Shown: positions 21,278 to 59,076 of the stretch, piece by piece | Layout: each line of letters starts with the position of its first letter | Position numbering within the stretch: position 1 is the stretch's first letter | Assembly: GCF_022846255.1 (NCBI RefSeq) | Contig: NZ_AP025682.1 | From: Escherichia coli | GTDB taxonomy: Bacteria; Pseudomonadota; Gammaproteobacteria; Enterobacterales; Enterobacteriaceae | Reading direction: 5' to 3' (one strand) | DNA length: 64,000 bases | The notes under the pieces: model-generated | Told to the model about the DNA's origin: nothing | The model's input: the letters and a program-made list of their open reading frames with translations, nothing else | Database searches by the model: none | Translations under genes and position numbers: made by a program

Positions 21278-21489
21278 CAGCTTTTCCTTACAGAGGGTGA
21301 ATAAAAAAGCCGGTACCCACAAATGTGGATACCGGCAGGTACAAAACAGCATGGTCAGATAAAGTGGTTTTTCCCGGACATAAATGCTTCCCCTCTCTCA
21401 TCCGCCTGAGAAGTATCAGTCCGTTGTGTGCAATTCCGTTCTGCATGATGAAGAGATTCAGCTGCCTTTTCGCAGGCCATTAACCACTA

Positions 21490-21545
21490 TAAACGATCGA
21501 TGGTGACGATCGATACCTGTTTTATCGATCGTTTTATTCTATTAA
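21490..21545 (-). promoter_or_regulatory. Ag43 phase-variation switch: three clustered GATC (Dam) sites in the flu regulatory region (OxyR/Dam epigenetic switch)
   Basis: GATC at 21495-21498, 21508-21511 and 21537-21540 within about 45 bp, roughly 220-260 bp upstream of the flu start codon; matches the known architecture of the agn43 regulatory region. Confidence 0.6.
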
Positions 21546-40732: not shown

Positions 40733-41800
40733 TTGCAAAGCATGCAGCTGTTAATTTTACTGATACAGCAAATGAAAGATAAATTACGATTTGAAGTGAA
40801 TGATACTCAGGGCCGTTTCATCTTTCCGGAAACATGGTTCAATACACTTATAGATGAATTTGAGGAACTGGTTGAGGCATATGATGCGGAAAAAATATGT
40901 GGGAAAAACTATATAAGTGAACTCCAGCGTCTTACCGAGCAGGTGCCTGATTTTATCGATGCGTACGCTCATTTGGCATACGTGTTTCTGGAACAGAATG
41001 CGCCATATCAAGCCCTGGATATGGCGCTTAAAGGTTTAGCTGTAGGTAACCGTTTAATAACAGAAGGGTTCAATGGAGAAATTCTCTGGATATATCCAGA
41101 GAATCAACCCTACCTGCGGGCCCTTTATGCTACAATCCTTGCCAATATACATCTTCAACATCATCAGGATGCCGTCATACTTACGGATAAAATATTGACG
41201 TATAACCCAGAAGATAATCAGGCTGCACGATGGTTACTGGGACAAGAACTGTTACGTGCAGGCGAGCGTGATCGGGCGCTGACCCGGTATTCTGATGAAT
41301 TTTCACCTTATTGGTATGAACTTGGATTTCTGCTCTTTCTTAACGGAGAGTTCGTGACGGCAGCAACTGCTTTTCGCCACGGTTTTGCCACTAATATCTA
41401 TATTGCAGATATTTTATGTGGAAATCTACATCCCTTTCCACTTCCTCTGTGGCATAGTTTCTTGGGAGGACCAGACATCGCTGAAGATTATTATGCAACA
41501 TATGGTCTGTTCTGGGGGCAATATCCGGAAGCATTACTTTTCGTAAATTGGCTCTACAATCAGTCATCTGTGTTGAATGAAAGAGCAACAATAATTAAGT
41601 GTGCAGAAGCATTGTTGCGAGAAGATGATTACGAGGCATGCGAGAAGATTCTTAAAGAACAGAAGAGATTACAGGATAATATTGACGACAGGATTTCTGA
41701 GAAAATAGTTAGGAAATACCGAACATTGCAAGGGGATGAGATTTGGCCATGGATGTTACCGTCTTCAATTGATAAGGAGCTGTCCCCTTTTGATGAATAA
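40733..41800 (+). CDS. Hypothetical helical-repeat (TPR-like) protein
   Basis: 355-aa ORF of moderate GC inside an AT-rich region; repeated amphipathic helix pairs; true start may be the internal MKDKLRF. Confidence 0.5.
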   Translation: MQSMQLLILLIQQMKDKLRFEVNDTQGRFIFPETWFNTLIDEFEELVEAYDAEKICGKNYISELQRLTEQVPDFIDAYAHLAYVFLEQNAPYQALDMALKGLAVGNRLITEGFNGEILWIYPENQPYLRALYATILANIHLQHHQDAVILTDKILTYNPEDNQAARWLLGQELLRAGERDRALTRYSDEFSPYWYELGFLLFLNGEFVTAATAFRHGFATNIYIADILCGNLHPFPLPLWHSFLGGPDIAEDYYATYGLFWGQYPEALLFVNWLYNQSSVLNERATIIKCAEALLREDDYEACEKILKEQKRLQDNIDDRISEKIVRKYRTLQGDEIWPWMLPSSIDKELSPFDE

Positions 41801-42428
41801 ATATGTGTTGCACGTTTAATATATTAATCATGGCTGGGCGTATAAATCATCATGAAGAGGTATAAATTATAATTATACCATGATTATGAACACGCCCTTC
41901 ATTCTACATCTGTAGGGCGTGATCTTCTACTGAATTTGATTGTAATTATAGCAGTATCTGTATAATGGCTTTATCAGTGAGTTAATATTATGTCGTATGT
42001 AATATAGTAACAGAACAATAATATAAAAATTAAGCTGAGTGTGGATATAAAAGAAAGTTTGTTATAGATTAAATGAAATACCCTCAGAAATATTCTGATG
42101 TAAGGTTATACATAATTGTCGACTATAATCGTATGATATTACATGAGTTTTTAGTGAGTGTGCGATTTCATGTCAGAAATGGATTGTAATGTTTTGTACA
42201 TAAGCATATTTGAGTGCTAAGTGCCTGATGGATATATGTTAAAATATATAACCCTTTGAGTACATTGTCCAAATGGATATAAGAGATAATTTATTATATC
42301 AAAAAATCTGATAACTGAAAACCTCTTGTGTCCCAATAAATAAGCTTAGTTTTAGAAAAATGAGATGAATTTATACAGTGATGCCCTATGAAGCTATTAT
42401 CATGATAGTCATGACACATAATTCTCGT

Positions 42429-43739
42429 TTATTTTAATGGACTAATATCACTATTATTATCGCTATCTGTGATTTTTTCCCCATTCACGGAGATCATTCC
42501 CTGGATATATGAATCCCATAGATGTACGTCACCTTTATGAAAAATAATGCATGACATTGCGATTTTTTGTACTTTATATATCTGTTTATAGTATTCTTCT
42601 GAGTTTAATGGTGTATCTTTCAAGCTTTCATTCCTTGCTGGAAGAATCTTGACGGGACAGATAAAATCTGTATCCCCGAGTGAAAAGACATTAACTCCGG
42701 TTATAAAAAAGATACCCGGAATGTCTTGATGCAATCTCGTATTCCAGACTTGAGGATTAAACAGTTTATATGAATATTTATTTACATCTATATAATATTG
42801 ATGAGGACGCCAATCACTGATACCCGACATACTCATCGTCATATTGATAATTATATCAGGAATAGGTTTGAATAATACACTTAGAATGAACAATATGGCA
42901 GGAGGGAGTATTGCGATAGATAGCAAAGAGTTCAACCCTTCTTCTTGTTTTTCTTCTTGCTCATTTATCACTATCACACCTGGCAACATTCCTAAAAAGA
43001 TAAAAGCTAATGCAATGCAAGAAAATGATAGAAACTGTGATAAGATATCTGCACTCTCTTCAAGTCTGATCTTATTTGTCAAAAATAGCAGGGGGATAAT
43101 CTGAACAAGCCCGGGTAGAATTAAACATAAAGGAAGAGTGTATCTTATCCTGTTCCTGGGACGATATTGTTCGTGATTCTCGTGATTCTCGTGATTCTCG
43201 TGATTCTCGTGATTCTCGTGATTCTCAATGTTCTGTTCCCGAGGGGTATTTTTAGTGAATATTAATTTTTCTGAGAGGAAATATGAGACGAAATAATTAA
43301 ATAATACTATTAGTATTACTTCTGATATGGATGGATATAGAGTATTTTCTTCTGAAAAGGTAGACAGAACTGACTTTAGCACTAATGAAAAATAGAAAAC
43401 AACACTGTTCATATAGCAAATTATAGCAATTCTGTGCGCGATTCCTTTGTGATTTTTATAATAGTCTTTATGCCATGTATATGTATACACCAATACATGA
43501 GAAGATATAAAAATCAGTGAGGTTAGAGCCATTAGAGATAAAAGGATAAATATAAAGATAACACTTAAATAAAACTTTATGTCTATTGAGTCGAAAAACA
43601 AATCAAGTCTACCGAGTCCTTGCAGATAGAACCATATTGCAGATATGGCGCATCCTGTACTAAATACAGAAGACGTTAACATGGCGAGAAAAGCTTTATT
43701 ATTTAAATGTGAAAAGATAGATCTATTCATTATAAGCAC
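42429..43739 (-). CDS. Hypothetical polytopic membrane protein with an (ENH)6 His-rich repeat loop and a C-terminal soluble domain
   Basis: 436-aa very AT-rich ORF with multiple hydrophobic segments; 9-bp tandem repeat encodes ENHENHENHENHENHENH. Confidence 0.5.
   Translation of the reverse strand: MLIMNRSIFSHLNNKAFLAMLTSSVFSTGCAISAIWFYLQGLGRLDLFFDSIDIKFYLSVIFIFILLSLMALTSLIFISSHVLVYTYTWHKDYYKNHKGIAHRIAIICYMNSVVFYFSLVLKSVLSTFSEENTLYPSISEVILIVLFNYFVSYFLSEKLIFTKNTPREQNIENHENHENHENHENHENHEQYRPRNRIRYTLPLCLILPGLVQIIPLLFLTNKIRLEESADILSQFLSFSCIALAFIFLGMLPGVIVINEQEEKQEEGLNSLLSIAILPPAILFILSVLFKPIPDIIINMTMSMSGISDWRPHQYYIDVNKYSYKLFNPQVWNTRLHQDIPGIFFITGVNVFSLGDTDFICPVKILPARNESLKDTPLNSEEYYKQIYKVQKIAMSCIIFHKGDVHLWDSYIQGMISVNGEKITDSDNNSDISPLK
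43172..43225. repeat. 9-bp tandem repeat (CGTGATTCT)x6 inside the membrane-protein CDS (in-frame, encodes (ENH)6 on the - strand)
   Basis: Direct reading. Confidence 0.9.
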
Positions 43740-43945
43740 ATCATATTCTGTTGAGTATATGTCGATTTTATAATGTCATGTTCATGCAGATAATATCATA
43801 AGTAACATTAGTTGAACAAGAACAGAGTTGTAACAGATAAAGATCTCGTTGTTAGTTACATGATCTGATAAATGTTAGCATGAAATAGTAACTATATGAA
43901 GGATATAAGAACCTGTATCATAATGTCATATGCGTTATATCTGAT

Positions 43946-44707
43946 TCAGATATATTTTAATTTTGCTGATAGTTCTCGACATGCTTCAAGAACCAAAGTG
44001 GAATAATATTCTACTTTTTCTTTTGGCATTTGAATTTCCACACCACTAATGCTGATAGCAGCAATTGCTTCTCGAGCCTGATTAAACACCGGGGCGGCAA
44101 TGCAATAAATTCCTGGTGAATCTTCTGCGTTATCAAAAGCCCATCCTCGCTCACGAATACGTGCAAACTCTAGTATTAGATCAGATTTCCGAGTGATTGT
44201 CGTTTGCGTAAATCGAGGCAATGCCTCCTCAGGTAGTAAAGTGTCAATGACGTCTTGAGGTAACCATGCGCATAACGCTTTCCCCACCCCTGAGCTATGG
44301 AGTGGCAGCTTCTTACCTACCCACGTTCTGATACCAATTGGTTGAGTGCTTTCGAGTTTTAAGATATAGATTGGAGCGACTTCCTCAAGAATGCCTAAAT
44401 GGCAGATAAGATCAGTACTATCTCTCAGTTTTTCCAGCACCGGTCTCGCTACCTTACTTATGTCAAACTGTTCTAGCGAGCGATTTCCCCATTCATATAA
44501 TTTCAGTCCAAGGAAAAAACGCCCCCTTTCCTGACGTAACAAATGGTGTTCGACCAGAGCATTCAGTAAAGATGATGTGCTGCTTTTAGGCAGAGCCAGA
44601 TCTTGCTGGATTTGACTGAATGTGGCACCAGGAGAGTTGAAAAGATAATTGCAGATTCTGACTGTTTTATCGAGTGCTGGTACTGGTGTTCTTGTTTGAT
44701 TATTCAT
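43946..44707 (-). CDS. IclR-family transcriptional regulator
   Basis: 253-aa ORF with N-terminal HTH and C-terminal IclR effector domain; divergent from the catabolic operon. Confidence 0.8.
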   Translation of the reverse strand: MNNQTRTPVPALDKTVRICNYLFNSPGATFSQIQQDLALPKSSTSSLLNALVEHHLLRQERGRFFLGLKLYEWGNRSLEQFDISKVARPVLEKLRDSTDLICHLGILEEVAPIYILKLESTQPIGIRTWVGKKLPLHSSGVGKALCAWLPQDVIDTLLPEEALPRFTQTTITRKSDLILEFARIRERGWAFDNAEDSPGIYCIAAPVFNQAREAIAAISISGVEIQMPKEKVEYYSTLVLEACRELSAKLKYI

Positions 44708-45204
44708 AAAAAAATAACATATGATTTCTTACCAATGCTAAATAGTATACCCCAATCTTTATTAATGCATAGTGATGCTTAATCATTATGTTGCAGTTGA
44801 TCGACACAGGGGGACAAGAGTAGTTGTGTCACTGCCACATCACCCGGCATGCGATTTCACATCGGGATGTTCGAGAAGCATCAATGCTGCGCCCAAGATC
44901 CACCGAAAAGAAACGTGGGAATCACCGGCGGTGGGATTCATTGTCTATGCCCGTGTAGATTAGTGTGGATTTGCTGCACAGATGGTTCCGGTCTGAGAAA
45001 TGGGTAAATTCGTCGTTTACGACGGGAAGCTGCCTACACATGTTATACATCGTCTTCGTGTATCAACATGCTCCTATAAACTCGACTCAACTCACATTTT
45101 TCATTTCACATTGTAAAAACCTTTGACATGCAGAACCTTATTCTGATTCATTATATTCAACATGAAGAACTTTTGTTCCATATACAGAACTTAGTGAGAG
45201 CGAT

Positions 45205-46104
45205 ATGTTGACAGCGTTTAGAGGTATTTTTCCGCCGGTTCCTACTATTGTTGACGCACAGGGGAAACTGGATAAGACGGGTATGGCCCGAATGATTGAC
45301 CATGTAATAGAGAATGGTGCAAACGGAATGCTGATCCTAGGCAGTGGGGGCGAATTCTCACAATTTTCTTCCCAACAACGAAAAGAGATAGCAGCATTTT
45401 GTTTAAATCATGTAGATGGAAGAGTGCCTGTACTGGTGGGGGTTGCTTGTGCCGGGACAGCAGAAACTATTGAGCTGGGACGCCATGCTTATGAGCACGG
45501 AGCTGATGGTGTGCTGGTTGTTAATCCGTATTATGCAAAACTCAGCGATGATGCCCGGTTTATGCATTATAAATCTATTGCTGATACACTTGAAATCCCG
45601 GTGTTTCTCTATAACTTTCCTGATTTAACCGGCCAGGATATTGGACTTGAAGTCATTACCCGGCTGGCCCGGGAAGTTCCTAATATCGTGGGTATCAAAG
45701 ATACAATCGATAACATCAGTCATACCCGAGAAATTATCAACCGTGTACATTCATTTCGTCCGGATTTCATTATATTCAGTGGTTATGACGAATATATGCT
45801 GGACACTCTGTTACTGGGTGGTCATGGCGGTATTCCGGCAACATTCAATTTTGCTCCGGAAATCACACGGGGTATTTATCAGGCTGTTATGGAAAATGAT
45901 CTTGATAAGGCGCGTTATTTCCAACAACAACTGGCAAAATTGTCTCCGTTGTATGCGCTTGAGCAACCTTTCTTTGGGGTGATAAAGACCGCCATCAAAC
46001 TGAGTGGACTGGACATATCTACTGCAGTTATGGCACCGGCTCTTCCGCTCAGTGATGAGAAAATATCCAGAGTAAAATCCATTCTGGAACAAATTCATCA
46101 GTAA
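45205..46104 (+). CDS. DapA/NanA-family class I aldolase/lyase (dihydrodipicolinate synthase-like)
   Basis: 299-aa ORF with family motifs (GSGGEF, NPYY, Schiff-base lysine context IVGIKDT). Confidence 0.8.
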   Translation: MLTAFRGIFPPVPTIVDAQGKLDKTGMARMIDHVIENGANGMLILGSGGEFSQFSSQQRKEIAAFCLNHVDGRVPVLVGVACAGTAETIELGRHAYEHGADGVLVVNPYYAKLSDDARFMHYKSIADTLEIPVFLYNFPDLTGQDIGLEVITRLAREVPNIVGIKDTIDNISHTREIINRVHSFRPDFIIFSGYDEYMLDTLLLGGHGGIPATFNFAPEITRGIYQAVMENDLDKARYFQQQLAKLSPLYALEQPFFGVIKTAIKLSGLDISTAVMAPALPLSDEKISRVKSILEQIHQ

Positions 46105-46120
46105 TCACGAGGGACGCAGG

Positions 46121-47638
46121 ATGAATAACTCTCAGGTACTCAAACTCAATAATCTGGATGATGTTGTGATTGCCATAACAGAGCTTCCTGCCGGAAGCTG
46201 GTTGAAGGCAGAAAATATCGAAACGCGTGACCTTATTCCGGCCGGACACAAAATTGCTCTTCGTGATATTCCTGCTGGTAGTGCGGTTAAGCGCTATGGA
46301 CAAATTATCGGCTTTGCCACTCGTGATATCCGCCAGGGGGAACATATTCATGTTCATAATCTCGGTATGGGAAATTTTGAACGTGATTATGCCTGGGGAA
46401 TAGACAGCCATCTTCCTGAGCGGGATGTCCATCAGGATACTTTTATGGGGATCAGAAGAAAAGACGGGCGAGTGGCAACCCGTAATTTTATCGGTGTGCT
46501 GAGTTCGGTGAACTGTAGCGCAACCGTGGTCAGAGCCATTGAGGATCATTTCCGTACCCGAGGCCTGAGCGATTACCCGAATGTTGATGGTATTGTCGCA
46601 TTGCCTCAGAGCTTCGGCTGCGCCTTTGGCTCTAATACTGAAATGATGAAAGTCATGCGGAGAACGATAGCAGGCTATGCCACTCACGTAAACTTTGCCG
46701 GGATTGTGATAGTGGGACTGGGATGTGAATCATTCCAGATTAAGGACATGATGAATGCCCATGGACTACATGAAAACCCGATGTTTCATACACTGACAAT
46801 TCAGGAAAGTGGCGGAACACGCAACGCTATCGAAAAGGGTATTTCGTTTATTCTTGATATGCTGCCGGAAGCCAACAATGTTAAACGTGAACCTGTTCCA
46901 GTGTCAGAAATTATCCTGGCCCTTGAGTGTGGTGGCTCAGACAGTTACTCAGGAATTTCTGCCAACCCGGCACTCGGTTATGCAGTTGATCGTCTGGTCC
47001 GTCAGGGAGGGACGGCCATTCTGTCCGAAACATCAGAAATCTACGGAGCTGAGCATCTTCTGACACGCCGTGCTATTAATCGTGAAGTGGGAGAAAAGCT
47101 AATCCGCAGGATTAAGTGGTGGGAGGAGTACTGTAAACGTACGGGTAGTGAAATGAATAACAATCCCTCCGCAGGTAATAAAGCGGGAGGGCTGACTACT
47201 GTTCTGGAGAAATCACTGGGTGGAATCGCTAAAGCCGGGACAACCAGCTTAATGGATGTGTATGAATATGCTGAACCTGTAACAGCAAAAGGGCTTGTCT
47301 TTATGGATACCCCCGGGTACGACCCGATGGCGGTAACTGGGCAAATTGCCGGAGGCGCTAATCTACTGTGTTTTACCACGGGTAGGGGATCTGCCTTTGG
47401 AGCAAAACCCACGCCTTGTCTGAAACTGGCGACCAATAATGCATTATGGCAACGACAGCGTGATGACATGGATTTAAACTGTGGCACGATCGTTGATGGT
47501 GAAGAAACGATTGAACAGGTAGGGGAACGTATTTATCAGAGAATTATTGAGCTGGCTTCAGGTAACCGTAGCCGAAGTGAAGAACTTGGGTATGGGAGTC
47601 TGGAATTTGTTCCTTGGATAATGAACTCAATAATGTAA
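46121..47638 (+). CDS. UxaA/GarD-family sugar-acid dehydratase (altronate/galactarate dehydratase-like)
   Basis: 505-aa ORF with a GAGGGA RBS; N-terminal SAF-like domain and C-terminal dehydratase domain by recalled similarity. Confidence 0.7.
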   Translation: MNNSQVLKLNNLDDVVIAITELPAGSWLKAENIETRDLIPAGHKIALRDIPAGSAVKRYGQIIGFATRDIRQGEHIHVHNLGMGNFERDYAWGIDSHLPERDVHQDTFMGIRRKDGRVATRNFIGVLSSVNCSATVVRAIEDHFRTRGLSDYPNVDGIVALPQSFGCAFGSNTEMMKVMRRTIAGYATHVNFAGIVIVGLGCESFQIKDMMNAHGLHENPMFHTLTIQESGGTRNAIEKGISFILDMLPEANNVKREPVPVSEIILALECGGSDSYSGISANPALGYAVDRLVRQGGTAILSETSEIYGAEHLLTRRAINREVGEKLIRRIKWWEEYCKRTGSEMNNNPSAGNKAGGLTTVLEKSLGGIAKAGTTSLMDVYEYAEPVTAKGLVFMDTPGYDPMAVTGQIAGGANLLCFTTGRGSAFGAKPTPCLKLATNNALWQRQRDDMDLNCGTIVDGEETIEQVGERIYQRIIELASGNRSRSEELGYGSLEFVPWIMNSIM

Positions 47639-47705
47639 TAACACAGGGCAGAGTTTATCCTGCCCTGTTGAAGTAAACACCGTTTTAGATAATTAGAGGT
47701 GAATA

Positions 47706-48713
47706 ATGGAACAGAAACCTGTGTTGGGAATTTTTTTAGGTGAAGCTGCCGGTATCGGACCAGAATTGATTGCTAAGGTTGTTGCTGATGGTACTGTCTA
47801 TAAATATTGCAGACCCGTTCTGATTGGTGATGCCCGTGTTCTTGCTCTTGGACAAAAGATTGCGGGTGTTCATTTTCAATGGGATGTAATAAGTGACCCA
47901 TCAGAGGCAGACTGGAGCACAGGAAATGTACCATTACTTGATTTAAAAAATTTCAACCCCGAAAAACTAACTATGGGGACCATTGATACCGATTCAGGTT
48001 ATGCAACCGGGGAATCATTGGTAACCTGTATGTCATTACTCAAATCAGGAAAGATTGATGGTTTTGTTTTTGCTCCATTGAATAAAGAGGCGTTCAAGAA
48101 AGGGGGCTGGGATATTGAAGACGAACATTATCTGTTTGCAGAGCAGTTAGGATGCCTGGATAGACCTCGCGGCCTGTTGAATGTCCTGGATGATCTCTGG
48201 GTTTTCCGTGTGACCGGACATATTCCGTTCAAAGATATTGCCAGCCATATTACTCCAGAAAATGTTAGCCGTTCGATTCAGTTATGCTATGACACACTAC
48301 GTATGGCAGCTATTGAAAATCCGCGAATTGCAGTTGCTGCACTTAATCCCCACGCCGGGGATGGTGGAACCTGCGGCACCGAAGAAATAGACGTGCTCAT
48401 TCCAGTAATTGAAAGTTTTCGAAAGAAAGGAATGGACATGTATGGGCCAGTTCCAGGTGACACCATTTTTATTCATGCGTTTAATCATGAATATGATGCG
48501 GTTGTTACCCTGTTCCATGACCAGGGACAAATTGCTACTAAACTGCATTCCTTTGACGTGGGAATAACTGTTGCCGCAGGACTTCCGTTCGCTATTACAA
48601 CACCAGAACATGGCACTGCATTTGATATTGCAGGTAAGGGGATCGCAAAAACAATGGCTACAGAGAGGGCTATTGCCGTGGCGGCCAGAATGGCTTCTAC
48701 AACACATAAATAA
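47706..48713 (+). CDS. PdxA-family NAD-dependent dehydrogenase/decarboxylase (4-hydroxythreonine-4-phosphate dehydrogenase-like)
   Basis: 335-aa ORF; PdxA-like motifs (NPHAGDGG, HDQG). Confidence 0.7.
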   Translation: MEQKPVLGIFLGEAAGIGPELIAKVVADGTVYKYCRPVLIGDARVLALGQKIAGVHFQWDVISDPSEADWSTGNVPLLDLKNFNPEKLTMGTIDTDSGYATGESLVTCMSLLKSGKIDGFVFAPLNKEAFKKGGWDIEDEHYLFAEQLGCLDRPRGLLNVLDDLWVFRVTGHIPFKDIASHITPENVSRSIQLCYDTLRMAAIENPRIAVAALNPHAGDGGTCGTEEIDVLIPVIESFRKKGMDMYGPVPGDTIFIHAFNHEYDAVVTLFHDQGQIATKLHSFDVGITVAAGLPFAITTPEHGTAFDIAGKGIAKTMATERAIAVAARMASTTHK

Positions 48714-48983
48714 AAATTCATAATAGCAGATAATATAATGTCTAATCTATACAGATAGATGTGAATATTATCTGCGTTATAATAAACTGTATAAGGCTAT
48801 TATAAATAACAGTCGGTGTTTTGATAAGTTGCTGGTTGTTATATCTTTAAAACGAGTTGATGATATTTATTTACTAGATATTCAGTGCGATTATAGCAGT
48901 ACTGTATCGCAAGAAAATAGCAGTGCTGGGGAAGTAGAAAGAATAAATTGCGATTTGCATGCTCATAGATAAGGATAGATCTC

Positions 48984-50342
48984 ATGTATTCAGAATCATT
49001 TGTGATGATAAGTGGGCTTGTTGCAATAGTTATACTTATCATCTTGATCACCCGATTTAAGCTTCATCCTTTTTTTTCATTGCTTATATCGTCTGTATTT
49101 TTGGGAATTGTGAACAATATTGGAGTGGCGAAAAGTGTAGATATATTTACGCACGGGTTTGGTAGTCAACTGTCTGTCACGGGGGTAGTTATCGGCTTAG
49201 GCGCAATGTTGGGGGGGCTATTGGTACAGTCTGGAGGAGGGGACAAAATAGCCGATATTATTATTGGGTCTAGAAAAATTGTTTGGATGCCTCTGTGTAT
49301 TGGTATAGTTTCGTTAATCATCGGTCTACCTAACTTGTTTGAAGTTACTTTTGTACTGATGGTACCCCTTGTGTTCTCTATTACCAAACGTTTGGGGTTA
49401 CCTGTTCTCAGAGTTGCACTCCCAATGTCTGCAGGATTAATGACAGCTCATGCGTTATTACCGCCTGGTCCGGCAACTATTATCGCTGCTACGGCTTATG
49501 GTGCCAGCATCGGAGAAACTACGCTTTATGGGGTGATTATTAGTATACCTGTTCTACTCTCAGGAGCTTATCTTTTCCCAAAAATAATGCACAAACATCT
49601 TAACGTGGGAGAACCTTTGGCACTGAATGAAACTGAACATAGACGGGGAAATAACGAACGTCAATTATATCGCCAACCATCGCTGACTGTCGCTTTGATA
49701 ACAGTTATGATCGCCCCTTGTCTGATGATTGTTGGGACTATTGGACTTGACTTTTTGCCAAAAACAGGTGTGGTCACAGAGGTATTCCAGGCACTAGGCA
49801 ATCCAGTAATAACTCTTGGACTTGCTCTGGTTTATGCCATGATATTTCTGGGACGGGGAGTGGGTTTTAGTAATGAAGAAATCCTGTCTATCAGTAAGAA
49901 AAGTATTGTGCCTATTGTTGGTTTGTTGCTAATTATCGGTGGAGGCGGTGGATTAAAAAACATACTAACAGCAATTGGTCTAAGTGATATTATCAGTAAC
50001 TTTGCTACGGATTGGTCTATTCCTCCGCTATTATTTGCATGGCTGGTGGCAGCTATTTTCCGCATTGCGCTTGGCTCTGGAACGGTGGCGGTCTCAGCTT
50101 CAGGAGGAATCGTTGCCGCGTTACTTACAGCACATCCAGAAACTAACGCAGCTCTATTGGTACTTTCAACTACGACTGGGGCAATGATTTTTTCACATGT
50201 CAGTGATGGGGCATTTTGGTTATTCAAAGAATACTTTGGACTTAGCGTACCACAAACTATTCGCACATGGAGTTATTTAGTCACGATACAGTCCATTGTC
50301 GGGCTTATAGGTGTATTGGTTCTAGGCGCTATTCTCAGTTAG
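48984..50342 (+). CDS. GntP-family sugar-acid permease
   Basis: 452-aa hydrophobic ORF with GntP-like topology and motifs. Confidence 0.7.
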   Translation: MYSESFVMISGLVAIVILIILITRFKLHPFFSLLISSVFLGIVNNIGVAKSVDIFTHGFGSQLSVTGVVIGLGAMLGGLLVQSGGGDKIADIIIGSRKIVWMPLCIGIVSLIIGLPNLFEVTFVLMVPLVFSITKRLGLPVLRVALPMSAGLMTAHALLPPGPATIIAATAYGASIGETTLYGVIISIPVLLSGAYLFPKIMHKHLNVGEPLALNETEHRRGNNERQLYRQPSLTVALITVMIAPCLMIVGTIGLDFLPKTGVVTEVFQALGNPVITLGLALVYAMIFLGRGVGFSNEEILSISKKSIVPIVGLLLIIGGGGGLKNILTAIGLSDIISNFATDWSIPPLLFAWLVAAIFRIALGSGTVAVSASGGIVAALLTAHPETNAALLVLSTTTGAMIFSHVSDGAFWLFKEYFGLSVPQTIRTWSYLVTIQSIVGLIGVLVLGAILS

Positions 50343-50427
50343 TGGTTCTGTATTCAATATATAAGAAAGCAATATCAAGTTTTAACATCTTTAATTTAAT
50401 AGATATAGTATTAAAGGAGAGTAATTT

Positions 50428-51693
50428 ATGTCCTCCAATGAGAAAGCAACAAATATAAGATGGAGAATATTTTTTGTACTTTTTCTTCTTGTTGTTGTCA
50501 GTATGATTGATCGAGCCTCAATATCTATAGCTATGCCTACTATCGCTAAAGATTTGGGATTAAGCGATACGATGCAGGGATTAATACTAAGCGGTTTTTT
50601 CTGGACTTATGCTTGTATGCAAATACCCGGTGGGTTTCTGGCCGATAAATTTGGGGCAAGAATTGTACTGACATGTTCTGCCATTATTTGGGGAACTGCA
50701 GAAGCCTTATTAGGATTATGCCCAACAGGTTTCGCTTTACTTGCTGCTAATCTATTGCTTGGTGCAAGTGAAGCACCTGTGTTTCCCTCAGGCGCTAGAC
50801 TTAATGCAATTTGGTTAAATAAAAATGAAAGAGCTCGTGGAGCAACATTAATGGATGCCGGAGGTCCATTTGGGGCTGCAATTGGTGGAATATTAGTAGC
50901 TGAAATGATGCTTTATTTTGCATCGTGGCGGGTTACATTCATTATCTGTGGTGTTGCGGCTATCACTCTGGGGTTAATAGCTTACTGGATTATTCGCGAC
51001 AAACCTGAAGATTCACCAAATGTAAATGATAAAGAATTAAGTATTATTAATCTCGATCGTGTTGAGCAACATATAGTAGCAGAAAACAATGAGCCATTAT
51101 TAAAGGTTATTCCTCTACGTTCTTTTATTGGTATGCTTTTAGGTCGTTGTTCATGGGCAATGTGTTTCTTTGGTTTATTAACCTGGGGACCAGGATATCT
51201 TACACGAGCATTAAATCTGGATTTAAAAGCTGTTGGTTTTGCCACAATGATTATATTTTGCGCAGGTGGTTGTGGTAGTCTTTGTGGCGGATGGCTGGCA
51301 GATAAACTCGCAAGTAAAGGATTTGGGCGAGCTAGAACGTGTAAATTTCTATTAACTGTATCAGGTATCTGTACACTAATATCATTTGCTTTATTACCAA
51401 GCATACCAGATGTAAAAACATCAATTATTCTGCTGTCCTGCGCCGCGTTTGTTTTGATGTGGGGTAGTATGTACTGGACGTTTCCTCCTTTATTAGCTCC
51501 CCGTTCCCGTGTAGCTACTGTCGGGGGCATGATGAATATGGCTGGAAGTGTTGGAGGTATTTGCATTCCACTATTGGTAGGACTTATTTTGGATGTGACG
51601 AACTCATTCAATCCTGTACTCTACTTTTTTGCTGGTTGTGCTGTAATATTTATTTTAATGACTAATATTATCGATTTACGACACGTGCGATAG
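50428..51693 (+). CDS. MFS transporter (anionic sugar/sugar-acid type)
   Basis: 421-aa ORF with an AAGGAGAG RBS; 12 TM segments. Confidence 0.75.
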   Translation: MSSNEKATNIRWRIFFVLFLLVVVSMIDRASISIAMPTIAKDLGLSDTMQGLILSGFFWTYACMQIPGGFLADKFGARIVLTCSAIIWGTAEALLGLCPTGFALLAANLLLGASEAPVFPSGARLNAIWLNKNERARGATLMDAGGPFGAAIGGILVAEMMLYFASWRVTFIICGVAAITLGLIAYWIIRDKPEDSPNVNDKELSIINLDRVEQHIVAENNEPLLKVIPLRSFIGMLLGRCSWAMCFFGLLTWGPGYLTRALNLDLKAVGFATMIIFCAGGCGSLCGGWLADKLASKGFGRARTCKFLLTVSGICTLISFALLPSIPDVKTSIILLSCAAFVLMWGSMYWTFPPLLAPRSRVATVGGMMNMAGSVGGICIPLLVGLILDVTNSFNPVLYFFAGCAVIFILMTNIIDLRHVR

Positions 51694-51702
51694 GAGATAA
51701 AC

Positions 51703-52653
51703 ATGAACATCAAGCCACTAAATTTATATGATGGCCCTGTAATTGATGCGCATCATCACTTCTGGGATCCGATAGAAAATGATCATCCTTGGCTAAAGCC
51801 GGATGTTTTAATTCCTTTTAGATATGGTGATTATACGGCGATTAAGAAAAAATATTATCCTGAAGATTATTTTGCAGATGTAGGTGATATTAATGTCGTT
51901 GAAACCTGTTATATGGAGACTGAATGGAATCCAGCGGATCCATGTGGTGAAAGCGATTTCATTACATCAGTAGCAAAAATGACAGGTTATCCAAATGCTG
52001 TTGTCGGACAGGCTTGGTTAAATCATGATGATATAGATTCTGTGTTGAAGATGCAGAGTTCATATGAGTTGATGCGAAGCATCAGGCATAAGCCAGAGGG
52101 GCCTGATAAACCAGAGGATGTTGGATCGTATACAACTCTGATGAGTGATGAAAGATGGCGATATGGGTATTCATTACTTTCAAAATACAATCTAATGTTT
52201 GATCTGCAAACCCAGTGGTGGAATTTGCATGAAGCTGTAAAACTGGCAAATGATTTCCCAGACACAGTAATAATCCTTAATCATACAGGGCTCCCTGCAC
52301 AACGTTCTGTTGAAGGGTTGGCCGGGTGGCATTCAGCAATGGCTTCTTTGGCTGAATGTGAAAATGTGATGGTTAAAATATCGGGTATAGGTTTAAAAGG
52401 GATTCCATGGACAGTGGAGAATAATCTATGGATAATATCTGAAACGTTATCAATGTTTGGTCCTGACAGGGTCATGTTTGCAAGTAATTTCCCCGTGGAC
52501 AGTCTTTGTGGCAGTTTCAGTGATATATTTCATGGCTTTATGACTGTTTGCGAGATGAAAGGGTATTCACATGCGGCTCAGCGGAAAATGTTTCATGACA
52601 ATTGTAAGAGAATCTATCGAACAATCCCACCAAGTGAATTGAAGGAAGTATAG
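51703..52653 (+). CDS. Amidohydrolase-2 family metal-dependent hydrolase (lactonase/decarboxylase-like TIM barrel)
   Basis: 316-aa ORF with an AGGAGA RBS; N-terminal HHHFWD metal-binding motif. Confidence 0.65.
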   Translation: MNIKPLNLYDGPVIDAHHHFWDPIENDHPWLKPDVLIPFRYGDYTAIKKKYYPEDYFADVGDINVVETCYMETEWNPADPCGESDFITSVAKMTGYPNAVVGQAWLNHDDIDSVLKMQSSYELMRSIRHKPEGPDKPEDVGSYTTLMSDERWRYGYSLLSKYNLMFDLQTQWWNLHEAVKLANDFPDTVIILNHTGLPAQRSVEGLAGWHSAMASLAECENVMVKISGIGLKGIPWTVENNLWIISETLSMFGPDRVMFASNFPVDSLCGSFSDIFHGFMTVCEMKGYSHAAQRKMFHDNCKRIYRTIPPSELKEV

Positions 52654-52805
52654 CTGATAATCATATTTAATGATATCTGAGGTTTATTATTGTATAACTC
52701 ATGGAAATTCATGATTCGTAAATGTGAGTTATATCTATATGCTGTTGAATAGTGATACGCAAGAAGCACATAAAAATATAACATAATAATACTCCGTAAA
52801 CATTT

Positions 52806-52832
52806 CCCCCTTTTAAAAGAGGGGGAGTTTTT
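52806..52832 (+). terminator. Rho-independent terminator after the sugar-acid operon
   Basis: Hairpin CCCCCTTTT/AAAGAGGGGG followed by TTTTT, about 150 bp after the amidohydrolase stop. Confidence 0.5.
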
Positions 52833-52972
52833 ATTGTCATTGCTATACCATAGCTTGGAGAGGATTATTGGAATGGTAGAAGAGTCATTATGAGATAATA
52901 TTATTATCTGAGCTGGCCCCCTGAAATACCAGACAGTAGATGTATCTTAAAATAAGAGATAGGCTTGGATAT

Positions 52973-57758: not shown

Positions 57759-58949
57759 TTATATAGCTGGTGACTCTTTTCGAAGAGCATCAAGGTAGTC
57801 AGCGTACCATTGCATCATTTCTCGTCTTCCTTCAAGGTAACGAGCATGGTTGTATGTACCACGAATGCTGTTTTTGTCCGTATGTGCAAGTTGCATTTCA
57901 ATCCATGCACTATTGAATCCTTGCTCGTGTAGAACAGTACTCATTGTATGACGAAATCCATGCCCGGTAGCTTTTTTGTCATAGCCAATCTTCTTCAAAA
58001 CCATATTGACGCTTGCATCGCTGATAGGCCTGTTAACATCATTTCTTCCGGCAAAGATGTATCTGTATCTTCCAGTCAGTTCTTTGAGGATTTGCAGAGA
58101 CTGGATTGCCTGATCTGACAGAGGGACGATATGCTCCTTCCTCATTTTCATCCGGGTCGGAGGAACTTCCCATATCTTTTGGGTAAAATCGATCTCACAC
58201 CATTCCCCCATACGTAATTCTACTGTTCTCAGCCCTGTGAGCATCAACAATTTTGTAGCTTCACGGGTTACAATACTGCCGGTGTAGTTTTCGAGTTTGT
58301 ATAAAAACTCTGGTAGTTCAGGAGGAAGCAGGAAAGGGTAATGTGTTCGCTTATAGCTTTTCATTGCTATAACCAGATCAGAAGCTGGATTGTATCGTGC
58401 CCGACCTGTAACAATGGCATACCGAAACACTTCACCACATCGTTGGCGAACTTTATTAGCTAGCTCGCAGGCTCCTCGGCTTTCGATACGCTGAAGAACT
58501 GCGAGAAGTTCAAGAGGTTCGATTTCACTAATGGGTCTGTTTCCAATGTAGGGAAACACATTATTTTTGAATGCTCTGTCGACATAATCAGCGTAGCTGG
58601 CAGACCAGCCTGAAACTTTTGCGTTGTACCACTCGGTGGCGATTGCGGCAAAAGTTCTTCCTTCGGAAAGGTTTTTCTCAAGATTTTCAGCTTTCTTGAC
58701 TTCACCGGGATCTTTACCATCGGCATGTATTTTCTTGGCTTCATCCCGACGTTTGCGAGCTTCAGCCAATGTAATAGTTGGATAGGTGCCAAATGATAGT
58801 TTCTTTTCCTTCCCCGCATAGTGGTACTTCATTCGCCAGTACTTTGAGCCGTTAGGATTGACCTGAAGGTAGAGCCCACCACCATCGGCAATCTTATAAA
58901 TTTTATCTTTGGGTTTGGCTGTTTCAACTTGTCGAGCTGTCAGTGGCAT
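57759..58949 (-). CDS. P4-type tyrosine integrase
   Basis: Start placed at MPLTARQVETAKPKDKIYKIADGGGLYLQV (typical P4-Int N-terminus); C-terminal catalytic motifs HGFRHT...Y. Confidence 0.8.
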   Translation of the reverse strand: MPLTARQVETAKPKDKIYKIADGGGLYLQVNPNGSKYWRMKYHYAGKEKKLSFGTYPTITLAEARKRRDEAKKIHADGKDPGEVKKAENLEKNLSEGRTFAAIATEWYNAKVSGWSASYADYVDRAFKNNVFPYIGNRPISEIEPLELLAVLQRIESRGACELANKVRQRCGEVFRYAIVTGRARYNPASDLVIAMKSYKRTHYPFLLPPELPEFLYKLENYTGSIVTREATKLLMLTGLRTVELRMGEWCEIDFTQKIWEVPPTRMKMRKEHIVPLSDQAIQSLQILKELTGRYRYIFAGRNDVNRPISDASVNMVLKKIGYDKKATGHGFRHTMSTVLHEQGFNSAWIEMQLAHTDKNSIRGTYNHARYLEGRREMMQWYADYLDALRKESPAI

Positions 58950-59076
58950 CTGGGGGCCTCGCAATAGATTGACCAAGATGTGCCCCTAAATAGGCCCCCA
59001 AATGTGACTTGATTTACGTTCCCCTGAGGAGAATTAAGGCGACTATTTGAGTAACATAAGTAAGGGTATGTGCTGA

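Follow-up and report, generated by a model that had tools for sequence, protein, structure and literature searches.

A tetratricopeptide repeat-like gene and a membrane protein gene with a variable ENH repeat, from two families carried by mobile elements, lie tail to tail in an Escherichia coli genomic island

A 64,000-nt stretch of Escherichia coli DNA (contig NZ_AP025682.1; hereafter the window) contains two open reading frames (ORFs) arranged tail to tail: a tetratricopeptide repeat (TPR)-like gene at 40733..41800 on the plus strand and an AT-rich membrane protein gene at 42429..43739 on the minus strand. These are the limits of the longest frames, both of which start at rare codons. The convergent pair had been described in a first-pass annotation as two unassigned proteins whose surroundings suggest a horizontally acquired functional unit. 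Both ORFs were confirmed, and both products are still without an assigned function. Each is a real gene, their distributions are unrelated, and both come from families carried by mobile elements. The explanation that we prefer, with a probability of about 0.7, is that they are two unrelated passengers of mobile genetic elements, brought into a tail-to-tail position within a mosaic E. coli island, in a patch that is AT-rich and decayed, and that they do not form a two-gene system.

Results

Distribution of the two genes

The TPR gene and the membrane gene were adjacent in one E. coli island lineage only, consisting of the window and the loci L015 and L035–L037, which are 99–100% identical. In a sister lineage (L002–L007 and 16 similar places), the DNA is collinear with window positions 42033–52909 at 97% identity, and the membrane protein is 92–95% identical to that of the window. 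In this lineage, the TPR gene has been reduced to its final ~100 codons, next to which come an IS110 fragment and then a type I secretion cluster, and the membrane gene is intact. Twenty-one synonymous and 20 non-synonymous changes separate the membrane gene of the window from the 93%-identical L002 allele, which corresponds to a ratio of non-synonymous to synonymous substitution rates (dN/dS) of 0.25. The same calculation against distant homologues gave no estimate because the synonymous sites were saturated. The intact reading frame in the sister lineage and the dN/dS value together indicate that the membrane gene is maintained without the TPR gene.

The co-occurrence of the two genes, proposed in the first-pass annotation as a check of the unit, was tabulated by tblastn. 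None of the 19 loci with divergent membrane homologues (21–44% identity) had a TPR gene in the fetched flanks, and none of the seven loci with an E. coli TPR paralogue had a membrane gene. Six further TPR loci (L038, L039, and L041–L044) had no neighbour of the size of the membrane family, as judged from gene tables and not by tblastn. Among the loci covered, the two genes were thus not found together outside the E. coli lineage, a result close to the complete lack of co-occurrence that the annotation itself had named as fatal to its claim.

The membrane protein gene and its family

The longest ORF of the membrane gene begins at a GTG codon at 43739 and encodes 436 amino acids (aa). The ATG at 43730 is the likely true start, because all homologues start there; the resulting gene (42429..43730, minus strand) would encode a 433-aa protein beginning with MNRS. 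Residue numbers below follow the 436-aa numbering. In many E. coli assemblies, NCBI annotates merely a C-terminal fragment of 180–185 aa (P0221, P0230), although the full ORF of 430–436 aa is intact in the DNA (42429–43739, minus strand, in the window; 5242–6543 in L036). This frequent under-call of the start, which leaves a 180-aa fragment in place of the gene, distorts pan-genome clustering and could mislead analyses built on it. Truncated or frameshifted copies also exist (L025 and L035/L037).

In a word-indexed search, 5.8 billion proteins yielded only 15 clusters, all from Enterobacterales, and a family-profile search of 1.84 billion representatives gave 160 cluster matches, mostly 375–430 aa in length. 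A Foldseek search against AFDB50 extended the family to Pseudomonas and Chromohalobacter, and almost all of the matches listed were named 'Uncharacterized protein', none of them bearing an informative annotation. Neither the protein nor any of 67 family members matched an entry of Pfam-A, NCBIfam, PADLOC, or PHROGs at E ≤ 0.001. A family-profile search of PDB sequences returned only transmembrane (TM) noise for the whole protein and nothing for its C-terminal domain, and a literature search on the protein accessions found no paper. Membership in the CDF or ZIP transporter families was considered and rejected, no homology to either having been found. From these searches, the protein is assigned to an undescribed gammaproteobacterial family. 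Thus, of the earlier statement that neither protein matches a recognised family, the part concerning the membrane protein stands in that it matches no curated family, whereas the TPR protein falls in a large family named by NCBI. One membrane homologue (L022) was found on a 9-kb contig binned as a metagenome-assembled genome of Collinsella sp. (Actinomycetota). Since all other close relatives are from Enterobacterales, this contig is probably a binning contaminant.

The membrane gene always stands alone, and its neighbours change between loci. In the type IV secretion system (T4SS) operon of an integrative and conjugative element (ICE) of Enterobacter hormaechei (L008/L009), it is located between DtrJ-like and RAQPRD genes, co-oriented with them and separated by gaps of 108 and 67 nt. 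In a decayed ICE (L028), the homologue directly follows a split TraG_N gene. In Enterobacter and Serratia, it is found beside genes for type I restriction-modification (R-M), ScoMcrA-HNH, Mrr, AbiE, SymE, and CbtA/CbeA, and its further surroundings include phage tail genes, a giant toxin with immunity-like genes, and metabolic genes. A distant paralogue (22–27% identity) is present on ~1230–1270 of 72,556 plasmids, mostly conjugative IncFIB plasmids of E. coli, where it adjoins the genes for the RepFIB initiator (RepB) and a tyrosine recombinase (int). A search of 50,697 phage records gave no homologue of the membrane family. Such a distribution is indicative of an accessory gene that travels on mobile elements.

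On the Cronobacter sakazakii plasmid pCrono589-2 (L032 6968-13763), the membrane homologue is convergent with a cluster that looks like one for a lasso peptide or a similar ribosomally synthesized and post-translationally modified peptide. The cluster contains genes for an asparagine synthase-related protein, a PqqD-family protein, a cupin, a methyltransferase, and a major facilitator superfamily (MFS) exporter.

Predicted topology and conservation of the membrane protein

The hydropathy profile and a confident AlphaFold model both support the membrane character of the protein. The model, obtained with a 67-sequence alignment (pLDDT 87.8, pTM 0.86), has ~7 long helices between residues 17 and 290 (42870..43691, minus strand), which a short amphipathic linker connects to a C-terminal alpha/beta domain (residues 306–420). 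Counted to the end of the protein (residues 306–436), this small soluble domain is encoded at 42432..42824 on the minus strand. The positive-inside rule, applied to the 67 sequences, predicts a cytoplasmic location for the N-terminus (net charge, +1.3) and for loops 4-5 (+2.6) and 6-7 (+1.1), and a periplasmic location for loops 1-2 and 5-6, which are negative. The loop charges across the family place the C-terminal domain in the predicted periplasmic compartment. The structure and topology predictions that the first-pass annotation had recommended thus yielded a confident model with ~7 helices and a predicted N-in topology. Neither the whole model nor the C-terminal domain had a significant match among solved structures.

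P253 in TM6, C361, and C397 are invariant in the family, and W36, L39, G306, W332, and P362 are nearly so. TM1 carries a conserved W36-x-Y-L...R-L-D-x-F motif at the end that is predicted to be periplasmic. The predicted periplasmic loop 1-2 (RLDxF), the linker, and the C-terminal domain are the most conserved parts of the protein, and the predicted cytoplasmic loops are the least conserved. The presence of two invariant Cys residues in the predicted periplasmic domain suggests a disulfide, and a probable C361–C397 bond would hold the C-terminal domain. The protein would present its conserved positions on the predicted periplasmic face, with the predicted cytoplasmic loops free to vary.

The ENH repeat

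A perfect 9-bp tandem repeat encoding (ENH)6, residues 172–189, is located at 43171..43226 on the minus strand. Tandem Repeats Finder (TRF) reported a period of 9, 6.2 copies, 100% matches, and a score of 112, the coding strand reading GAGAATCAC six times, in agreement with the six copies noted in the first-pass annotation. Such a repeat is far from chance. The array lies in the TM4-TM5 loop, which is predicted to be cytoplasmic and is the most positively charged and least conserved segment of the protein.

The expectation that the repeat is prone to length variation was borne out. Two copies are present in L002–L007, three in P0233 and P0234, at least three in L015 (which ends inside the array), five in L036, six in the window, and 11 in L035/L037, in which an insertion sequence (IS) has in addition truncated the 5' end of the gene. 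These alleles are otherwise 93–100% identical, and the five-copy allele of L036 has no other difference from the window over 1532 nt. The array thus behaves as a hypervariable in-frame variable-number tandem repeat (VNTR), and assemblies often break at it (P0225, P0228). Because the unit is 9 bp long, copy changes stay in frame, so that the protein varies in length and is not switched on and off as in phase variation.

The ENH array is found in the Escherichia alleles and in none of the other homologues. It probably arose in the Escherichia allele as a simple-sequence repeat in the least conserved loop, and slippage would then change its copy number faster than point mutations accumulate. The length of the array is most likely nearly neutral. 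Judged from the alignment, the array does not represent a conserved metal site, and metal binding is consequently not expected to be the core function of the membrane protein.

The TPR gene and its family

The longest ORF of the TPR gene starts at a TTG codon at 40733 (355 aa), and the ATG at 40772 is the likely true start. The 342-aa product of the latter (40772..41800, plus strand) is identical to NCBI WP_244331662 / BDH31968.1, which is named 'tetratricopeptide repeat protein'. In a single-sequence Pfam search, all matches were below threshold (best, ANAPC3, E 0.02). A family profile searched against the PDB matched human OGT in its TPR region (E 6e-6), MamA (E 2e-3), and otherwise generic TPRs, and most homologues carry precomputed Pfam matches to TPR_19, ANAPC3, or TPR_16. 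The protein can thus be placed in the TPR superfamily at the level of the family profile, and on this basis we consider its TPR character weak but real. Scores for the NCBIfam models of SctY (NF052415; 23.6 vs 70 bits) and PrsT (TIGR02917; 19.6 vs 312.2 bits) fell short of the cut-offs and reflect generic TPR similarity. The family comprises 42 homologue clusters at 90% identity and thousands of sequences, mostly from E. coli and Shigella, and 38 columns are invariant in 19 members reaching down to 33% identity. The conserved C-terminal half, which is the family's own, has no match to generic TPR scaffolds.

In E. coli, a P4-type tyrosine integrase gene invariably directly precedes the TPR paralogues (~69% aa identity to the window copy). 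The int-TPR arrangement occurs at three chromosomal sites (tRNA-Sec beside yicJ, yqgA/speC, and cutA/dsbD), and the contiguous 2.5-kb module is present in 1361 of the 5426 complete RefSeq E. coli genomes used for all complete-genome comparisons here. In Morganella, Yersinia ruckeri, and Pseudomonas amygdali, homologues with 46–52% identity are located between tnpA and tnpR of Tn3-type elements with a serine resolvase, and they overlap tnpR by 34, 4, and 7 nt, respectively. On the basis of an adjacent, co-oriented recombinase, we propose to describe these paralogues as recombinase-linked passengers, a descriptive grouping introduced here.

The TPR gene of the window lacks such a partner: no integrase, resolvase, or remnant of either was found within ~16 kb upstream. 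Given the missing recombinase, the gene is a probable relic of an island edge. The TPR family would normally be found directly beside the recombinase of a mobile element, and the window gene is most likely a diverged orphan copy, stranded at an island edge with no such partner.

Several side observations were made on this family. The window allele has three residues fewer at ~41330 (RAFRVLTRY -> RALTRY) than the otherwise 99%-identical alleles of L035–L037. Downstream of int-TPR in L016–L021 (~4480–13044), there are genes for a sulfatase-family protein, a CxxCxxCC protein, unannotated proteins of 523 and 359 aa, and a WYL/WCX regulator, a layout that looks like a possible defence island. In L039 (6001–13038), a Wadjet-type JetA/JetB/JetC/JetD cluster has a 33%-identical TPR homologue directly upstream of it; the homologue is itself preceded by two TnpB genes and an integrase, the latter at a distance of 2.8 kb. 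On the Aeromonas media plasmid pE31A (L043 4001–6704), two tandem TPR paralogues follow a helix-turn-helix (HTH) regulator, and tblastn gave matches at three places on this plasmid.

The island and the neighbouring genes

Against a GC content of 45.6% for the whole window, the membrane gene has 33.3%, the TPR gene 41.6%, and the 628-bp spacer between them (41801..42428) 29.5%. No Rfam match was found within the TPR-spacer-membrane block in a scan of the whole window, and a promoter and terminator scan performed no better than on shuffled sequence, with no convincing terminator in the spacer. The sole Rfam match in the window was the IS102 RNA (RF00124, 70.7 bits) at 21296–21532 on the minus strand, which marks an IS element.

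A kps-type capsule cluster (KpsE, a KpsF/GutQ-type isomerase, and export proteins) occupies positions 1–12500 with 98% identity to E. coli, which makes the window part of an island that bears a capsule locus. At 26–37 kb, the sequence matches IS elements and CP4-like island genes (dynamin-family, YagM, and YagK/YfjJ) with 96% identity, the region of 37–40.7 kb contains only short ORFs and IS debris, and the right end of the window matches the yjhG/H/I-sgc genes of E. coli. The only integrase homologue in the window is a 405-aa tyrosine integrase at 57759–58976 on the minus strand (homology, 57771–58949), located 16 kb from the TPR gene and beyond a sugar-acid operon. It shares 41% identity with the P4-type integrase found ahead of the TPR paralogues on other islands of E. 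coli. A near-identical copy of the membrane gene was found in none of the complete E. coli genomes, and the gene is present in draft assemblies and metagenomes. The E. coli flanks, the IS elements, the CP4-like genes, and the P4-type integrase homologue place the two genes in an AT-rich, decayed patch of a mosaic, IS-ridden E. coli genomic island. The deviant GC content (29–42% vs 45.6%), the mobile-element debris, which includes integrase fragments as well as IS elements and YagK/YfjJ genes, and the patchy strain distribution are those of a horizontally acquired island. The earlier claim of acquisition thus holds as far as AT-rich foreign DNA in an IS-laden island is concerned. On the other hand, it fails as regards a functional unit, because adjacency is limited to one lineage.

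The first-pass annotation had also pointed to a regulator flanking the block. This IclR regulator (43946–44707) is divergently paired with an operon encoding DHDPS, a UxaA-family dehydratase, PdxA, GntP, an MFS protein, and an amidohydrolase, and 452 complete E. coli genomes carry the regulator and this sugar-acid operon with neither the TPR gene nor the membrane gene. The regulator therefore belongs to the neighbouring operon.

Discussion

Alternative explanations

The view that the membrane protein, as a sensor or transporter, and the TPR protein, as its adaptor, form one acquired two-gene unit, perhaps under IclR, is very improbable and close to refuted. The genes are indeed adjacent and convergent in the window, L015, and L035–L037, and both are AT-rich relative to the genome. 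However, the 26 divergent-homologue loci searched by tblastn show no co-occurrence outside the lineage, and in L002–L007 a truncated TPR gene accompanies a membrane gene that remains intact under purifying selection. Moreover, convergent genes cannot share a transcript, the two differ in GC content (33% vs 42%), and the IclR regulator with its operon occurs without either of them. It is more improbable still that either ORF, or both, is a spurious or decaying frame within AT-rich junk DNA and yields no functional protein. The debris upstream of the TPR gene, the fragmentary NCBI calls, and the broken copies in L025 and L035/L037 would fit such a view. This is countered by the dN/dS of 0.25, the full-length membrane ORFs of the window and L036, a membrane family of 160 clusters with invariant residues and confident structure predictions, and the invariant columns of the TPR family.

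With regard to the membrane protein alone, a metal transporter or sensor whose (ENH)n loop binds metal, the binding being a possibility raised in the first-pass annotation, is an equally poor prospect. (ENH)6 does provide six His and six Glu residues in the predicted cytoplasmic TM4-TM5 loop, CDF transporters have a His-rich loop at a similar place, and one distant family member gave a weak, non-significant Pfam match to ZIP (E 0.015). As described above, however, the array is confined to the Escherichia alleles. A single-gene anti-phage or abortive-infection protein of defence islands is somewhat less unlikely, although still doubtful: the gene stands alone beside defence genes in Enterobacter and Serratia, and the family is carried on plasmids and ICEs. 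Against this, there was no PADLOC match, the absence of homologues from the phage records means that there is no signature of prophage superinfection exclusion, and other contexts are metabolic or beside plasmid replicons.

Several points also weigh against the explanation of two unrelated passengers and the roles considered for them below. Adjacency is kept in two different left-flank contexts (L036 vs L035/L037), so that some linkage between the TPR and membrane genes is possible. Only two of the ~14 distinct contexts of the membrane gene are inside transfer operons. The association of the TPR family with recombinases is frequent and not universal, a recombinase neighbour being absent in L040, L043, L044, and the window itself. 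Both the topology and the disulfide are predictions, IncF plasmids already carry traS and traT for exclusion, and all the biochemical functions proposed are inferred.

Possible functions and significance

We suggest tentatively, and with low confidence, that the TPR family may be a protein-interaction adaptor that is expressed with a recombination module and acts on or alongside it. The coupling of the family to both integrases and Tn3 resolvases suggests a testable role in recombination modules. Likewise with low confidence, the membrane protein might be an element-carried envelope exclusion or immunity factor acting at the periplasmic face. A broader proposal, which we regard as unlikely, is that the undescribed, mobile-element-encoded envelope family (~7 TM helices and a periplasmic domain of unrecognised fold that a disulfide would stabilise), with a distant paralogue next to RepFIB on over a thousand IncF virulence and resistance plasmids, could be a new exclusion or immunity determinant against incoming DNA, phage, or toxins and, separately, that P4-type integrases and Tn3 resolvases could have in the TPR family an accessory factor that has so far escaped notice.

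In the window, the TPR gene, the membrane gene, and its slippery repeat are ordinary island cargo. Beyond the window, the membrane family is of interest as one with no Pfam entry or solved-fold match, a relative of which lies beside RepFIB on ~1250 plasmids, many of them clinically relevant IncF plasmids of E. coli. The TPR family includes a common E. coli protein, found next to an island integrase in about one-quarter of the complete genomes, and is tightly coupled to Tn3 resolvases in other genera.

Comparison with known systems

TraS of the F plasmid and Eex of SXT/R391 are single-gene inner-membrane proteins of conjugative elements that are typically encoded right after the TraG gene. The membrane family resembles them in that one member is located right after TraG_N and another inside an ICE T4SS operon. 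When the transfer region marked by TraG is taken as the location typical of entry exclusion, L008/L009 and L028 conform to it, whereas the window and most other contexts do not. Unlike TraS and Eex, the family shows no sequence or fold similarity to these proteins, and most members, including the window copy, are outside transfer operons. Furthermore, TraS and Eex are ~140–170 aa long and lack a large periplasmic domain, and they are thus much smaller than the members of this family.

The ENH array invites two comparisons. As in CDF (ZitB/ZnT) and ZIP proteins, a His-rich segment is located in a predicted cytoplasmic inter-TM loop of a polytopic protein; in contrast to those proteins, to which there is no homology, the His residues here come from a recent, perfect 9-bp repeat of 2–11 copies in one allele group. 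As in the in-frame VNTRs of bacterial surface and membrane genes, the unit is a multiple of 3 and the copy number outpaces substitutions. Unlike classic contingency loci, the ENH repeat is unable to switch the gene on and off by frameshift, and since the loop is predicted to be cytoplasmic and not surface-exposed, antigenic variation is unlikely.

The TPR protein shares a profile similarity of ~60–90 residues with generic TPR scaffolds such as the TPR domain of OGT, MamA, and the T3SS chaperone SctY, but its scores are far below the family cut-offs and its conserved C-terminal half is unmatched. In Tn3-family transposons, the slot beside the resolvase holds toxin-antitoxin passengers that are co-regulated with the transposition module (Lima-Mendez et al., PMC7157771); the word 'tetratricopeptide' does not occur in that article. 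A single 340-aa TPR protein differs from such toxin-antitoxin pairs, and in the window the recombinase is absent. Like the Tn3 passengers, however, the TPR homologues occupy the tnpA-tnpR slot and overlap the start of tnpR, an arrangement that implies co-expression with the resolution module.

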